Below are positions 15,001 through 24,000 of a DNA stretch of 64,000 nt, piece by piece (position 1 is the stretch's first letter; every line of letters starts with the position of its first letter). Where the stretch lies: NCBI GenBank assembly GCA_963809425.1, contig CAWEJK010000012.1, positions 11,524 to 75,523 of the forward strand, read 5' to 3'. A program made the position numbers. Origin of the DNA: Thermoanaerobaculia bacterium (GTDB lineage Bacteria; Acidobacteriota; Thermoanaerobaculia; UBA5066).

Positions 15001-18000
15001 CTCGAAGCGGAGCCGCTCGATCGCCTCGCGGACCTCGTCCTCCCGTCCGAGGAGGATCGGGCTCGCGATCCCCTCTTCCGTGAGGATCGCGCAGGCGCGC
15101 AGAATCGTCTCGCTCGTCCCTTCGGGGAACACGACGCGCAGCGGATGCTGGCGGGCGGTCAGGATCATTCCCCGCATCGTCTCCCGGCCGGTCCCGAGGC
15201 GAACGGTGAGGCCGTCCTGGTACGCGCGGCTGTCCAGAGGCCGGCGGGCGATACCTTCCTCGATCGCCCGCTGGGCCACCGCCGTCGACTCCCGCACGAG
15301 AATCCGGGGATCGATCGGCTTCGGCAGCAGGTACTCGGGGCCGAAGCTGAAGCGTTCTCTTCCGTAGGCCCGTTCGACCTCCTCCACCACGTCCTCGCGG
15401 GCCAGATCCGCGAGCGCCCGCGCGGCGGCCACGAGCATTCCGGGCGTGATGCGCGTGGCCTGGACGTCCAGCGCTCCCCGGAAGATGTACGGGAAGCTCA
15501 GGAGATCGAGAACCGCGTTCGGATGCTGGTCGAGGCTCGTGGCCACGATCACGTCCCTCCGGCTCGCCCGCGCCGCCTCGTATCCGATCTCGGGCTCGGG
15601 CGTGGCGAGCGCGAACACGATGGGGAAGCGCGCCATGGAGCGGATCATTTCCTGGCTGAGGACGCCGGCGGCGGAGGCGCCGAGGAAGACATCCGCGCCG
15701 CGCAGGCCTTCGTCGAGCCCGCGGGCCGGATGCTCCCGCGCGAAGGCCCGCTGGTAGTCGTCGAGATCGTCCCGATCGGGGTGGATCAGGCCCTTGACGT
15801 CGTAGACGAGGAGGTTCTCCGGCAGGACGCCCAGCGACAGGAAGAGCCGGGCACAGCCGGTGCCCACCGTCCCGGCGCCGCAGAGGACGACCCGGACCGC
15901 CTCGATGCGCTTGTCCACGAGGTCGAGCGCGTTGAGGAGGGCGGCGGCGGCGACGACCGCCGTGCTGTCGAGGTTCTCGTGGAAGACGGGGATGTTCAGC
16001 TTCTCCTTGAGCCGGTCGTAGATGAGGAGCCCTTCGGGGGCGCGGATGTCCTTGAGGTTGATCCCGCCGAAGGTCGGCTCGAGCATCTGGACCGTCTCGA
16101 CGAAGCGGTCGGGGTCGGTGGTGTCCAGCTCCAGGTCGAAGACGTCGATGTCGGCGAGGCGCTTGAACAGGACGGCGACGCCTTCCTGCATCGGCTTGGC
16201 GGCGAGCGGGCCGACGTGGCCGAGGCCCGGCACCGCCGTACCGTTCGTGACGACGCCGACGAGGTTCCCGCGGGAGGTATAGCGGAACGCCGCCGAGGCG
16301 TCCTGGGCGATCTCCCGGGCGGGAAAGGAAGCCCCCGGCAGATAGGCGAGGCGCATCTCCCGCGGAGTCGAGCACGGCTTCGTGGCCTTCAGCTCGATCT
16401 TGCCGGCCCGGTCGCCGCCGTGATACTGGAGGGAATCTTCGCGTCGGATCATGACCTCTCGTCCTCCTCAAACGGTTGCGTGCGCGGCGGCCGGAGCCAG
16501 GGGATGACGCGTCAGGGTCTCGTGCAGCGTCGAGAGGAACGAGGCCACGGGACGGGCCTGAAGGATGAAGAGCCGCGTTCCCTCGATCCCGAATTCGATG
16601 TCCAGCGGGTAGCCGTAGGCGGTCTCGAGGCGGGCCGCGAGGCGCACGAGCTCGGTGAGCTCGACGTACTCCAGGGCGGGCCGCAGCCTCTGGTGATAGA
16701 GGCACTCCGTGCGCAGCGTCCCGAAGCCCGCCCGCCGGTTGAAGACGACCTGCTCGCGCTTGTCCGCGGTGACGTAGCGGAATCGGAGCGAGTCCCTCTC
16801 GAGATCGCCTTCCTTGGCGACCACGACGTGGTCGGCCTCCACGGCGCCCGAGACGATCCCCTCGCCCAGCCCGAGCCCGGCGTTGATCACGATCTCCCGC
16901 AGCTCGCCCTCGGCGACGTTGACGGTCTGGAGGACGCCGGAAACCCGCGACCAGACGATCCGCTGGACGACGACGCCGCCGCCCGCCCGCTCGGTTCCCA
17001 TCCCGAGCACCGTGCGGTTGTGGATCGCGCGTTCGGTCCAGAGACCGCTCCAGGCGCGTTTGAGGTGCTCGAGGACGGAGCCGTCGCCCCGGACGAAGAG
17101 GAAAGTCTCGAACTCGCCGGCCCGAGCCGCGATCTCGGCGTCCTCCTCGCGGGCGGAGGAGCGGACGGCCACGAACGGTCGCGCCGGGTCTTCGTCGGGG
17201 TGCCCCGGCGTCTCCGCGATGACACGGGTGGCGGCCGTGACCTCCTCGTTCAGCTCCTCGGGGAGAATCACCCGTTCCCAGAGGTCGCGGATGCAGGCGG
17301 ACTTCTGGGCATTGTCGATGTCGCGGCGCCCGAGAATGCCGGCGATGGCCTCGCGGAGCGTGCGCACGCCTCCGTTCGCGGGCGATTCGAGGACCTCCTC
17401 GAACGCGCGGTCCGTGACGACGAACCAGGGCGGGACGAGGCCGCCGCCCCCCAGCCGCTCCACTTCGGCCAGGTTCGCCGCTTTCCAGCCGACGAGGGAG
17501 TGGATCTCGAAGCCTCCTTCGCGCCCAGCCAGGACGCGCCGGTTTCCGAGCCTGCGCTGGACGGACTCGTCCTCGTTCGCGAGCCGTGTCCGCGCGAGCC
17601 GAACGTCCCCGTCCTCAGGGAGGCCGAGGACGAGGTCCAGCCGCTGGACCTGACGGAGCAGGTGGCGCAGCCGGGCATCGAGAGCCGGCGCCGTGACGAG
17701 GCCGCGGAGGGCGCGCGCGCGTTCGGCGCGCAGCTCCCCGAGGCGGCGAAGGACGGGGATGTCGACATCGGGGACGCCGGAGCCGTCCGGCGCGGAGGGC
17801 GCGACGCCGCACTCGCGCAGAGAGACGGCCGCGCCCTCCAGAGCCTGGCGGAGACGGAGCGTCTCGAGTCGCTGAGCGAGAATCTCGAACGGAGAGGCCG
17901 ACGTGGGAACGCGGCGCACGGTCTCGCGGGCCACGGCCGCGTGGCGCCGAACGAGCTCCTGCGTCACCTGGACGAGGTGGTCCCGGGTGGCGTCCCCGAC

Positions 18001-21000: not shown

Positions 21001-24000
21001 GATCCTGGCGATCGCGGCAAGCGCCGCCGGCTCCCCCAGGGGAGACGCTTCGGCCTCGACTTGCTCGGCAAGGAGCCGCACCGCGCGCCGGTCGACGGCG
21101 AGCGCTCCGGAGTCGGCGAGACGCTCGAACAGATCCAGGGCTCTCCGCGCGAGCCCGTCGTCCCGGCTCGCGAGCATCCCCTCGATCAGAGGCCACGCGT
21201 CCTCGAGACCGGAGGCTTCATCTTCCAGGAGACCGAACAGAGGGAGGTTGATCGGGCCCATCCGCTTGCGCAGGAGGGGGAGCAGGCTGCAGGAGGAGCC
21301 CGAGCTCCTGCGAGGTCGGGGGCCGGGACAGCCGCGCGCGGATCCGTTCGCAATCCTCGCGCACCTTCTCCGGCCGGCCCATCGCGACCTCGAACTCGGC
21401 GGCGATGGATTCGACGAGGGCTTCGATGGGCACCGTCTCACTCACCAGACACCGCCTTGCCGAGCGCCCGGTGCCGGCTTCCTCCTGGTGGCGAGGACTG
21501 TCCGGTCAGGGCACGTGGCCGACCATGTCGAGTCGGGCGAGCTGGGCGACGCCGGAGAGCGCCTCCTCGAGCGTGGTCCCCGTCGCCTCCTCGTAGTCGG
21601 AGCCGCGCTTCGCCTCGGCCCGCCACGCGAGGCCCCATTTGACCTTCCAGCCGTCGTCCTCGAGCTGCTTGAGCGTCAGCTCCCACCGCCGGTCCTTCTC
21701 TCCACGGAGGGCGGCAAGAGCCTGGAACGTAGCCTTCAGAAGCTCGAGGTCGAGGCCGTCGAGCTTCAGGTTGTCCGGAATCGGGACCTCGAGGGTTCTT
21801 CGCGCGAGCATGGCGCCCTCCTCCGGTCTCTGCCTAGAGGCCGTATCTCTCCACGATCTCGTTCTTCGTCTTGCCGAGAATGTCGTGCTTCTTCCCGACC
21901 TTGCGGAATGCTTCGATCGCCTTGTCGAGATGCGCCGTCGTGTGCGCGGCCGAGAGCTGCGTCCGGATGCGGGCCTGCCCCTTCGCGACGACCGGAAAGA
22001 AGAAGCCGACGACGTAGACCCCTTCCGCGAAGAGGTCGCGCGCGACGTCCTGCGCGAGCTTCGCGTTGTAGAGCATGACCGGGACGATGGGGCTCTCGCC
22101 GGCCTTGATGTCGAAGCCGGCGTCCGTCAGGAGTCCTCTCCAGTACCGCGCGTTTCGCTCGAGCCGGTCGCGCCGCTCGGTCGTGGCGGAGACGAGGTCG
22201 AGCACCTTGAGCGTTCCGGCCACGATGACGGACGCGAGCGTGTTCGAGAAGAGGTACGGCCGCGCCCGTTGCCGGCACATCTCGACGATCTCCCGGCGTC
22301 CGCTGACGCAGCCGCCCGAGGCCCCGCCGAGCGCCTTGCCGAACGTCGTCGTGATGATGTCGACCTTCCCGAAGACTCCGAAACGCTCGGCCGTGCCGCG
22401 CCCCGTCTTCCCGATGAAGCCGGACGCGTGCGAATCGTCCACGAAGACCATCGCGTCGTGCTTCCGGCAGAGGGCCACGATTGCGTCCAGCTTCGCGAGG
22501 TCGCCGTCCATCGAGAAGACGCCGTCCGTGATCACGAGGCGGAAGCGCTTGTCTCCGTGCTCGACGAGCTTCTCCTCGAGGTGCCCCATGTCGGAGTGCT
22601 TGAAGGTGTCCTGCGCCGCCTTGCGAGAGCCGCATCCCGTCGACGATCGACGCGTGGACGAGCCGGTCGGCGATCATGACGTCCTTGTCGGAGAGGATCG
22701 CCTCGAAGACGCCGGCGTTCGCGTCGAGGCACGACGAGAACAGGATCGTGTCTTCCGTCCCGAGGAACTCCGTGAGGCGGTTCTCCAGCTCGCGGTGGAT
22801 GTCCTGCGTGCCGCAGATGAAGCGGACCGACGACATGCCGTAGCCCCGCGCATCGAGGCCGGCGTGCGCGGCCGCGAGGACCGCGGGGTGCGAGGAGAGG
22901 CCGAGGTAGTTGTTCGCGCAGAGATTCAGCACCTTCTCGGGCCGGGCGCCCGCGGGGAACTCGACCTCGATCTCGGCCCCCTGCGGCGCGTGAATGACCC
23001 GCTCCTCCTTGAAGAGGCCCGCGGCCCTCAGGGTCTCGAGCTCGGCGCCGAGGACGTCGCGGAAAGTCGCGGAGAGCGTCTCGGTGGCCACGTCACACCT
23101 TCACGGCGGCGAACCGCTCGACGAGGGAGGCGATGCTGTCGACGGTGTTGAAGGCCTGCGGTGTCGCGTCGGCGTCGGGGATCTTCACGGCGTACTTTCT
23201 CTCGAGAAAGCGCTTGAGGGAGACCATCGAGAAGGAGTCGACGATGCCGCCGGTGATGAGCGGCGTGTCCGACTTCAGCTCGCGGTCGTCCCCCTCCTCG
23301 ATGTATTCGCGGCGGACGTAGTCGAGGATCGTCTTCTTCATGTCGTCCATTCAGTCCTCCATCAGGGTGGAAAGGTCGCCGACCGGCTCGCCCCACTCCG
23401 GCGCGCGCAGGACCCGGCGGAGGATCTTGCCGCTCCGGTTCCGCGGGAGCGACGCCACGAAGGCGATCTCCTGCGGCATCGCGAGGGGAGAGAGCCTTTT
23501 CCTCACGAAGTTCATGATCTCGAGCTCGAGGTCCTCTCCGGCCGTGAAACCCGGCTTGAGCGCGACGAACGCCTTGACGACTTCCATGTTCACGGGGTCG
23601 GGCTTCGCGACGGCGGCCGACTCGGCGACGGCGGGGTGCTCGAGGAGCGCCGACTCGACCTCGAACGGACCGACGAGGTGCCCTCCCGTGTTGATCACGT
23701 CGTCGTCCCGGCCCACGAACCAGAAATAGCCGTCGGCGTCCACGGTGGCGCGGTCGCCCGTGAGGTACCAGCCGTTCGCGAACTTCTTCGCATAGCCGTC
23801 GGGGTTGTTCCAGTAGCCGCGGATCATCGAAGGCCAGCCGGGGCGGAGGCCGATCACCCCGACGCGCCCCCGCTCCCCGTGCGGCTCGAACGTCGTCGGG
23901 TCGAGGACGGACGCGGTGATGCCCGGGAAGGGCTTTCCCATCGAGCCGGGCTTCACCGCCATCCCGGGGTAGTTCGAGATGACGATGCACCCCGTCTCCG

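Follow-up and report, generated by a model that had tools for sequence, protein, structure and literature searches.

A dikinase with its histidine domain ahead of the ATP-grasp, translationally coupled to a remodelled MaeB-like gene in uncultured bacteria

Introduction

The node that joins phosphoenolpyruvate (PEP), pyruvate and oxaloacetate is among the best-charted parts of metabolism, and to our knowledge all known PEP-utilising enzymes share one TIM-barrel domain. Here we describe a giant dikinase gene, and the gene directly downstream of it, in DNA from a Thermoanaerobaculia bacterium (Acidobacteriota; GenBank assembly GCA_963809425.1, contig CAWEJK010000012.1, positions 11,524 to 75,523 of the forward strand). 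The whole stretch of 64,000 nucleotides is called the window below, and coordinates refer to it unless another locus is named. The dikinase and its remodelled MaeB-like partner are real and undescribed; the catalytic core is of a known kind, and the architecture, the N-terminal fold and the partner are new.

The closest described enzymes are PpsA and PPDK, which share with the window dikinase a homologous ATP-grasp, a phosphohistidine swivel domain and presumably the three-site swivel mechanism; the genomic context of the window dikinase, the pyruvate node, is also as for these two enzymes. However, the domain order of the window dikinase is reversed, with the His domain ahead of the ATP-grasp, the TIM barrel is missing, and an 845-aa N-terminal module, a 245-aa helical insert and a MaeB-like partner are present, all of which PpsA and PPDK lack. 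It has been reported that a Thr two residues before the catalytic His (position His-2) is regulatory in PpsA, PPDK and EI, and that small-molecule dikinases have a hydrophobic residue at this position (PMC12167813).

The order found in the window, His domain and then ATP-grasp, is that of the plant glucan water dikinases (GWD) (PMC13553574). GWD1 and phosphoglucan water dikinase (PWD) share with the window dikinase the succession of acceptor region, His domain and ATP domain, a size of about 1,400-1,700 aa and the water-dikinase type. However, they belong to glucan metabolism and carry CBM45 or CBM20, whereas the window dikinase is bacterial and stands in a context of central carbon metabolism, and its family has no such carbohydrate-binding module (CBM) by Pfam in 28 members and no carbohydrate-binding fold by Foldseek. 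The gap between the His and ATP domains also differs, about 19 aa in StGWD1 against the 245-aa helical insert. The preliminary description of the window had compared the protein with these plant enzymes, and this likeness holds for the order of the domains but not for the insert or the CBM.

Rifampicin phosphotransferase (RPH), HpeHI, CreHI and the phenylphosphate synthase PpsAB provide a precedent for an acceptor site in a module other than a TIM barrel and for dikinase functions split over two polypeptides. They have the closest ATP-grasp structures, a hydrophobic residue at His-2 and the motif T/SxxGGxxxH in common with the window dikinase, but no malic-enzyme-like partner; the N-terminal module of the window dikinase is much larger, and the order in RPH is ATP-grasp, substrate domain and His domain instead of N-terminal module, His domain and ATP-grasp. 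VadK (Rv1127c) is another dikinase relative without the PEP/pyruvate TIM barrel that is tied to metabolic enzymes, but it is small, reportedly about 490 aa. It also has the PPDK domain order and no novel acceptor module, unlike the window dikinase. In Mycobacterium tuberculosis it acts as a PPDK-derived, TIM-barrel-less histidine kinase that binds metabolic enzymes (10.1101/2025.10.30.685616). Like the hybrid NADP-malic enzyme MaeB, the partner of the window dikinase has the malic, Malic_M and PTA_PTB domains, the NAD(P) Gly-rich motif and a Tyr at the position of Tyr112, but the catalytic Lys, metal-ligand Glu/Asp and substrate Asn residues of MaeB are replaced in essentially all 190 members of the partner clade. 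The window dikinase is not a member of the PpsA/PPDK, GWD/PWD or RPH/HpeHI groups, and presumably acts as a three-site swivel dikinase in the manner of PpsA, RPH and GWD.

Results

The catalytic core of the dikinase

The dikinase of the window, a protein of about 1,660 aa, carries two Pfam domains, PEP-utilizers (PF00391) at aa 941-1034 (E 5e-8, score 32.8 against a gathering threshold of 23.1) and PPDK_N (PF01326) at aa 1315-1633 (E 1e-55). An AlphaFold2 (AF2) model of the C-terminal half was obtained with a predicted local distance difference score (pLDDT) of 86.6 and a predicted template modelling score (pTM) of 0.88, and it contains the swivel domain, the helices and the ATP-grasp in turn. 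The preliminary description, made from the sequence, had read this half as a swivel domain with its His codon, a helical linker of about 250 residues and a PPDK_N/PpsA-type ATP-grasp at the C-terminus. Pfam and the translation confirmed the two domains, and the linker is all-helical in the AF2 model. The missing PEP/pyruvate TIM barrel was borne out as well: PEP-utilizers_C had no Pfam match in the window dikinase or among 28 family members, and a beta/alpha-8 barrel was absent from the AF2 secondary structure of the N-terminal part and was not matched by Foldseek either.

The His motif agrees with T/SxxGGxxxH and has Leu at His-2 (I-L-S-H). His974 is invariant in alignments A1-A4 and kept in at least 90% of the most divergent set, A5; together with the motifs RSSxxEED and LQARP it is invariant in up to 114 homologs. 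Judged by these motifs the dikinase machinery is intact, and it is predicted to be catalytically competent.

In Foldseek searches the ATP-grasp matched RPH (5hv6, E 1e-17, template modelling (TM) score 0.88), HpeI (9goj) and PEP synthase (2ols, E 1.6e-16), and the match to PPDK was far weaker, about 1e-6 against about 1e-17 for the other three. Since the ATP-grasp is nearer to RPH, HpeI and PEP synthase than to PPDK, the water-dikinase type is favoured. The RPH match covers the ATP-grasp only (about 331-340 aligned columns), and the RIF-type helical substrate domain of RPH was undetected in the window dikinase. The swivel domain matched the phosphocarrier domain of PPDK (2fm4, TM score 0.71), and no structural match was found for the helical insert when the C-terminal half was searched. 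The sequence-profile search of the PDB related the ATP-grasp to PEP synthase (8a8e, E 3e-62) and the His domain to PPDK (E 1e-16). Only partial matches were obtained with NCBIfam, in which the His domain matched PPDK models and the ATP-grasp reached 197 bits with the PEP synthase models, missing the equivalog cut-offs of 598-883 bits.

The N-terminal module

The region ahead of the swivel domain, about 850 aa that the preliminary description could not assign to any family, did not match a known domain in any of the searches made here. Pfam gave no match on aa 1-940 and nothing new in the N-terminal part of 28 diverse members, and the PDB profile search found solely the ATP-grasp and the His domain. 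With Foldseek no match at E <= 0.001 was obtained against the PDB and none against BFVD; the best one, a 152-aa YbjN-like protein (2plg, E 0.08), is uninformative. The 50 best PDB matches listed, all weaker than E 0.001, included neither the all-alpha central domain of GWD (9HA9/9QVI), the presence of 9HA9 in the library being unconfirmed, nor the RPH substrate domain. An exhaustive phmmer search of 1.84e9 representatives did not find the module in other architectures, as all 214 proteins retrieved were members or fragments of this family, and a profile search again returned only this dikinase family and its fragments. A divergent TIM barrel, a CBM, a GWD central domain and a RIF-binding domain were considered as identities of the module, and all of them are unsupported by Pfam, NCBIfam, the PDB profile search and Foldseek against the PDB and BFVD.

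The module was modelled by AF2 with a pLDDT of 87.9 and a pTM of 0.85, as helical repeats over residues 1-195 followed by mixed alpha+beta domains. It is as conserved as the catalytic domains. Its invariant core motifs are HGLKRYLHQRGL, FCYGNEVHYY..NHPAFLRIDY, GGMIDLEYYGVS and HARYDKERALD, and its invariant residues are R268, H274, R350, H368, K371, R372, H375, E459, H469, R474, H501, R530, D532, K533 and D560, numbered from the Met of the public gene call (ATG 21261) as 1, to which 60 is added for numbering from GTG 21441. The conserved charged core suggests Mg2+ and a small anionic ligand rather than a polymer.

Distribution of the family

A search of 5.8e9 proteins gave 307 dikinase matches at E <= 1e-5. 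The 120 homologs listed have the same two Pfam domains, are nearly all 1,550-1,730 aa long and are 49-93% identical to the window protein; over the whole family identity is 42-93% across about 1,700 aa in at least 10 phyla, with a mean column identity of 61% over the full length. The preliminary description had named a fusion of two genes by the assembly as a possible source of the long reading frame, and such a fusion is excluded by more than 300 collinear homologs with the same architecture. A scan of one genome per species found relatives in 174 species, and 80 loci out of these species-level genomes were kept for the analysis of gene context. They belong to Acidobacteriota, Eisenbacteria, Calditrichota, Gemmatimonadota, Desulfobacterota, Bacteroidota/Ignavibacteria, Planctomycetota, Zixibacteria, Krumholzibacteria, Elusimicrobiota and Myxococcota, and the Acidobacteriota loci include a Thermoanaerobaculia genome with a dikinase of 89% identity. 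Nearly all of the 80 records are labelled as metagenome-assembled genomes (MAGs) and none is a named isolate; the family is one of uncultured bacteria. Complete MAG chromosomes with the gene pair described below are OY762941.1, OY776568.1 and OY969724.1. A full-text search of the literature found no description of the dikinase family, of its architecture or of the MaeB-like clade.

The downstream MaeB-like gene

The preliminary description had suggested a survey of the homologs for conserved neighbours. In this survey a MaeB-like gene was found directly downstream of the dikinase gene, on the same strand, at all 77 loci that extend 400 nt or more in that direction (at least 10 phyla, partner identity 51-96%). 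The partner start overlaps the dikinase stop by 4 nt at 42 of 76 loci and by any length at 51, and the two are less than 100 nt apart at 73 of the 76. In the window the partner starts 15 nt past the dikinase stop, and the spacer carries GGAGGA. The search was also made in reverse: three MaeB-like proteins encoded on further long contigs were taken as the starting point, and each of them had the dikinase gene immediately ahead of its own. The dikinase gene and the MaeB-like gene are a strictly conserved, translationally coupled two-gene module, and this coupling points to a complex between their products. It is very probable that the window encodes a functional dikinase within an obligate two-gene module.

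Some irregular loci were also seen. A 601-aa open reading frame (ORF), P0235, from two independent samples (L087 8001-9806; L088 449-2254) begins with dikinase residues 1-460 (39% identity) and continues directly with the C-terminal 125 aa of the MaeB-like partner, which are 74% identical. Because it joins parts of both genes, it was taken for a deletion scar across the gene pair; an intact copy of the pair was not seen nearby. A natural dikinase-MaeB fusion of the Rosetta stone kind was rejected, as the apparent cases are frameshifted long-read assemblies or this scar. A dikinase split into two polypeptides, as called in L086, was rejected since the frame continues through the called boundary. 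An anti-phage defence system was dropped as well, with no PADLOC match for the dikinase or the partner.

The active site of the partner

The partner aligns end to end with solved MaeB proteins from Bdellovibrio (6zng, E 7e-203) and E. coli (8jzo). In ME2 (numbering of the human enzyme), the metal is held by Glu255, Asp256 and Asp279, and the substrate is contacted by Lys183, Asn421, Asn466, Asn467 and Tyr112 (PMC7847962, PMC13461788). The counts at the equivalent positions cover 190 sequences of the clade, of which 70 come from the loci and 120 are database matches at >=71% identity. Lys is found at the Lys183 equivalent in none of the 190, with Met, Val or Ile in its place, and Glu is never found at the Glu255 equivalent, which is Lys in 174. 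The Asp278 equivalent is Glu in 179, the Asp279 equivalent Asn in 184, the Asn421 equivalent Thr in 161, the Asn466 equivalent Leu or Val, and the Asn467 equivalent Asp in 185. Of the malic-enzyme active site, the partner has lost the general base, two metal ligands out of three and the three Asn that bind the substrate; it has retained the Tyr112 equivalent (187/190), the Asp256 equivalent (185/190) and the NAD(P) Gly-rich motif. The probable placement of the ME2 residues on MaeB was made through an ME2 sequence whose internal offsets match the residue numbers of the literature.

The deviation of the partner from the solved MaeB sequence is independent of this mapping. Canonical PVMEGK became PMQEG[M/V/I], NLEDI became NLKDI, FHDDQHGTA became FHENL[Y/D]STA, ANPEPE became ATPEPE and VNNVLGFP became VLDLLSFP. 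The partner scored 711.9 bits with the NCBIfam NADP-malic-enzyme model NF009501, against a cut-off of 1178, and the NCBI (PGAP) names of the clade members shown are 'phosphate acyltransferase' (three) and 'NADP-dependent malic enzyme' (one). The 51-96% identity of the partners across phyla points to purifying selection, and since this selection is strong and the replacements are conserved, the partner should be a re-tooled or non-catalytic paralog and not a decaying gene. To judge from its sequence, the partner derives from MaeB, but its active site is remodelled and it is not a malic enzyme. A plain operon of malic enzyme plus PEP synthase was therefore dropped, as the partner lacks the catalytic residues of malic enzyme.

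Reading frame of the dikinase gene

The GC content of the window is 63-73%, about 70% around the dikinase gene, and because it is so high long shadow ORFs are common. The composition of the minus-strand dikinase ORF is normal, and GC is strongly enriched at its third codon positions (0.87). A plus-strand ORF of 2451 aa (14287-21642) was rejected as an antisense shadow by its composition (Arg/Glu/Asp/Gly-rich) and its codon-position GC; it lies on the strand opposite the MaeB-like and dikinase genes and may mislead gene callers.

The preliminary description had placed the dikinase at 16468-21445. The upper end is the true GTG start, but this span is 4978 nt, or 3n+1, and a frameshift at about 21286 had been missed. 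The uninterrupted ORF covers 16468..21441 (1657 aa), and the public gene call (P0001) has 1597 aa from ATG 21261. Homologs are longer by about 60 N-terminal residues, with the consensus SIxAEFxVAMGRPERV...LxPLLRKR. An extra C after CAG at about 21286 shifts the first 52 codons (VSETVPIEALVESIAAEFEVAMGRPEKV...) to another frame, and deleting it gives VSETVPIEALVESIAAEFEVAMGRPEKVREDCERIRARLSRPPTSQELGLLLQLLPLLRKRMGPINLPLF, which is collinear with the nearest relative (P0002, 93% identical), a protein with a single unbroken frame. Past the frameshift 1597 codons are undamaged, with a strong codon-position GC bias.

A second break of the indel type lies near 22600, within 2 kb of this frameshift, in the adjoining gene for a KBL/AONS-like alpha-oxoamine synthase. 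The ORF at 21766-23091 (minus strand) is true oxoamine synthase in its N-terminal ~150 aa and out of frame thereafter, and the ORF at 21834-22589 (minus strand) contains the true C-terminal 251 aa (Aminotran_1_2 positions 130-361). With a second frameshift in the adjoining gene, assembly indel errors are the likeliest cause of the one in the dikinase gene, and the extra C is probably an assembly error. The features of the gene pair are listed in Table 1.

Table 1. Positions in the window of the dikinase gene, its MaeB-like partner gene and their parts
Feature	Coordinates	Strand	Basis or remark
Giant dikinase gene	16468..21445	minus	start GTG 21445, stop TGA 16468-16470
Conserved N-terminal leader (VSETVPIEALVESIAAEFEVAMGRPEKV...ELGLLLQ)	21287..21445	minus	other frame than the remainder of the dikinase gene
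N-terminal module, 845 aa, presumed to bind acceptor and/or partner	18727..21261	minus	AF2; no known relative
Swivel phosphocarrier domain (PEP-utilizers) with a long beta-hairpin insertion	18277..18726	minus	Pfam, Foldseek, AF2
His974 codon, predicted catalytic	18520..18522	minus	motif STGGGILSH, overlapping GGGILSHAG
Helical insert, all-alpha, ~245 aa, between His domain and ATP-grasp	17545..18273	minus	AF2
C-terminal ATP-grasp, PpsA/RPH/HpeI type	16522..17544	minus	PPDK_N match 16543-17499
MaeB-like partner gene, malic + Malic_M + PTA_PTB, 751 aa	14197..16452	minus	Pfam, alignment with solved MaeB
Remodelled active-site codons of the partner, whole span	15505..16179	minus	ME2 equivalents
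V92 (Lys183 equivalent)	16177-16179	minus	
K134 (Glu255 equivalent)	16051-16053	minus	
E159/N160 (Asp278/Asp279 equivalents)	15973-15978	minus	
T284 (Asn421 equivalent)	15601-15603	minus	
L315/D316 (Asn466/Asn467 equivalents)	15505-15510	minus	
Y37 (Tyr112 equivalent), retained	16342-16344	minus	

Other genes around the pair

For the wider neighbourhood 84 loci were clustered by BLAST, and 91 operon-like neighbour genes were scanned with Pfam. The only recurrent extra neighbours among the surveyed loci are oxaloacetate decarboxylase (OAD) and canonical malic enzyme. Genes for the Na+-translocating OAD (OadA/OadB) were found at nine loci of Acidobacteriota and Ignavibacteria (L001, at 5635-9948, L006, L007, L029, L032, L039, L051, L063 and L064), where they lie upstream, downstream or convergent by lineage, with a biotin-protein ligase in four loci. 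At four loci, mostly from Desulfobacterota-type MAGs, a gene for a canonical large malic enzyme immediately precedes the dikinase gene in the same orientation (L086 1100-2902; L067 8074-9789; L020 740-2497; L027 1455-3194), so the dikinase gene there lies between one for a true malic enzyme and the remodelled MaeB-like one. This canonical neighbour scored 747 bits against a cut-off of 326; YTPTV, GERILGLGD, P[IV]GK, FNDDIQGTA, SNPT and GQCNN are all intact in L086, L067 and L020, and fewer of them in L027. Neither the window nor the 10 kb around any of the loci was found to hold a canonical ppsA or ppdK paralog, and glycogen or polysaccharide genes did not recur near the dikinase in this survey. 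A sigma-54 activator is encoded near the dikinase in about seven loci.

Upstream of the pair, the minus strand of the window carries a cassette at 21834-25469 with a phosphopantetheinyl transferase (PPTase; ACPS, 25089-25469), an acyl-AMP ligase (23351-25084), an acyl carrier protein (ACP; 23093-23350) of 85 aa that contains the motif DSFS, and the oxoamine synthase. The cassette looks like an aminolipid or sphingoid-base-type module. A link of the dikinase to it was rejected, as the cassette was not found beside the dikinase in the other 80+ loci. The pair is flanked on the same strand by two ORFs without a Pfam match, one of 101 aa upstream (21506-21811) and one of 194 aa downstream (13566-14150), the latter conserved only in the closest relative, L004 (63% identity). 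A fusion of a Ser/Thr protein kinase with TPR repeats is encoded a few kb from the pair (11141-13555, plus strand); another occurs, likewise a few kb from the pair, at the unrelated locus L084 (13005-15179), and this neighbourhood is probably coincidental.

Two further genes on the minus strand of the window were noted. A 629-aa ORF at 28555-30444 has an Ammonium_transp domain and a C-terminal P-II (GlnK-like) domain. A multihaem c-type cytochrome with paired CXXCH motifs and MtrC/MtrF-like domains is encoded at 37781-38845, adjoining mfd, surA-like peptidyl-prolyl isomerase genes and the dcw cluster (penicillin-binding protein, Mur ligases).

Discussion

We tentatively propose, with rather less than even expectation, that the pair is a two-subunit His-swivel 'X, water dikinase' at the pyruvate/C4-acid node, with pyruvate as the leading acceptor candidate. 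The net reaction would be ATP + X + H2O -> AMP + X-P + Pi. ATP would bind at the C-terminal ATP-grasp, where its gamma-phosphate would be transferred to water and His974 would take up the beta-phosphate. The swivel domain would then carry the phosphate from His974 to an acceptor site in the conserved N-terminal core, built from its residues rich in Arg, Lys, His, Asp and Glu, possibly together with the partner. The MaeB-like partner would be an obligate subunit other than a malic enzyme, serving as scaffold, allosteric sensor or (co-)acceptor-binding subunit. The acceptor may be a small anionic metabolite of the pyruvate/C4-acid node, most likely pyruvate, which would be converted to PEP or formed in the reverse reaction. 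Pyruvate/PEP leads the candidates because both recurrent neighbours release pyruvate together with CO2 and because the enzyme from which the partner is derived forms pyruvate; taken by itself, the assignment of pyruvate as the acceptor is doubtful. The preliminary description had supposed an acceptor other than pyruvate, which is not established, since the pyruvate/C4 node is indicated by the MaeB-like partner as well as by the neighbouring OAD and malic-enzyme genes.

Several facts weigh against this proposal. The N-terminal module shows no similarity to any PEP/pyruvate-binding fold, and the Leu at His-2 is as in the small-molecule dikinases RPH and HpeH instead of the Thr of PpsA, PPDK and EI. 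A simple two-step route from malate to pyruvate and then to PEP is unsupported, because the partner is without the catalytic residues of malic enzyme. No more than about 15% of the loci have the OAD or malic-enzyme neighbours, and the physical association of the dikinase and the partner was deduced from gene coupling only.

Other explanations were weighed against the same evidence. The dikinase may phosphorylate another small acceptor, and the partner may be a true enzyme of new specificity, so that the two would catalyze successive reactions in an undescribed pathway; the acceptor might be a C4 hydroxy-acid, enol-oxaloacetate, or bicarbonate, giving carboxyphosphate for an ATP-driven, biotin-independent carboxylation. 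We consider this somewhat unlikely. The His motif resembles that of small-molecule dikinases, CO2 is a common product of the OAD and malic-enzyme neighbours besides pyruvate, and the partner looks re-tooled rather than dead, with conserved replacements (Lys 174/190, Asn 184/190, Asp 185/190) beside the retained Tyr112 and Asp256 equivalents and NAD(P) Gly-rich motif. However, there is no positive evidence for any specific alternative substrate, pyruvate explains the neighbours equally well, and we know of no precedent for metal-independent chemistry in the malic-enzyme fold. A regulatory phosphotransferase, in which the phosphate of His974 is passed to a protein (the MaeB-like partner or another enzyme) and controls the flux through the pyruvate node, is unlikely. 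Such a role has a precedent in VadK (10.1101/2025.10.30.685616), and an obligate, translationally coupled partner that resembles a pseudoenzyme agrees with it, as do the helical repeats in the first ~195 N-terminal residues, which were read as a protein-protein interaction type with no support from similarity searches. However, VadK is small and PPDK-ordered, no phospho-acceptor residue is recognisable in the partner, and both the 42-93% identity kept between phyla along some 1,700 aa and the numerous invariant charged residues of the multi-domain 845-aa module fit an active site better than a docking surface.

The remaining two explanations are much less probable. The preliminary description had named a polymer or a carrier-bound intermediate as a possible acceptor, recognised by the N-terminal 850 aa of a bacterial analogue of GWD/PWD. 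The evidence for it was the GWD-like order of acceptor module, His domain and ATP-grasp (PMC13553574) and the ACP, PPTase, acyl-AMP ligase and oxoamine synthase genes just upstream in the window. It is now very unlikely: Pfam and Foldseek found no CBM or carbohydrate-binding fold, the 50 best Foldseek matches listed, all weaker than E 0.001, contained no GWD central domain and no RPH substrate domain, the ACP cassette is missing at the other 80+ loci, and the invariant neighbour is the MaeB-like gene, with no recurrent glycogen or polysaccharide genes nearby. Least probable of all is an artefact or a dead gene, that is, an assembly chimera or a pseudogene through the 5' frameshift. The extra base at about 21286 does disrupt the frame, and another lineage has a deletion-scar remnant of the pair, but more than 300 collinear full-length homologs, the 1597 intact codons with their GC bias, the second frameshift in the adjoining gene, which indicates assembly indel errors, and the unbroken frame of the nearest relative argue strongly against it.

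Returning to the proposed two-subunit dikinase, the pair is possibly, though on the doubtful side, a central-carbon enzyme of uncultured, mostly anaerobic bacteria that provides either a TIM-barrel-independent route between pyruvate and PEP or an AMP-forming, ATP-driven C3-C4 reaction. The dikinase family (~1,660-1,730 aa, 42-93% identity, at least 10 phyla) keeps the engine of the known dikinases and exchanges the acceptor module for 845 residues of unknown fold. Automated annotation labels the dikinase 'pyruvate, water dikinase' or 'PEP/pyruvate-binding protein' and the partner 'NADP-malic enzyme' or 'phosphate acyltransferase', and with such labels metabolic reconstructions of these lineages probably miscount both activities. 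The partner would clearly illustrate how a pseudo- or neo-enzyme can be recruited as an obligate subunit. The identity of the acceptor would yield either a non-homologous PEP synthase or a new reaction of central metabolism, and there is a credible chance that one or the other operates at the centre of metabolism in these uncultured bacteria.

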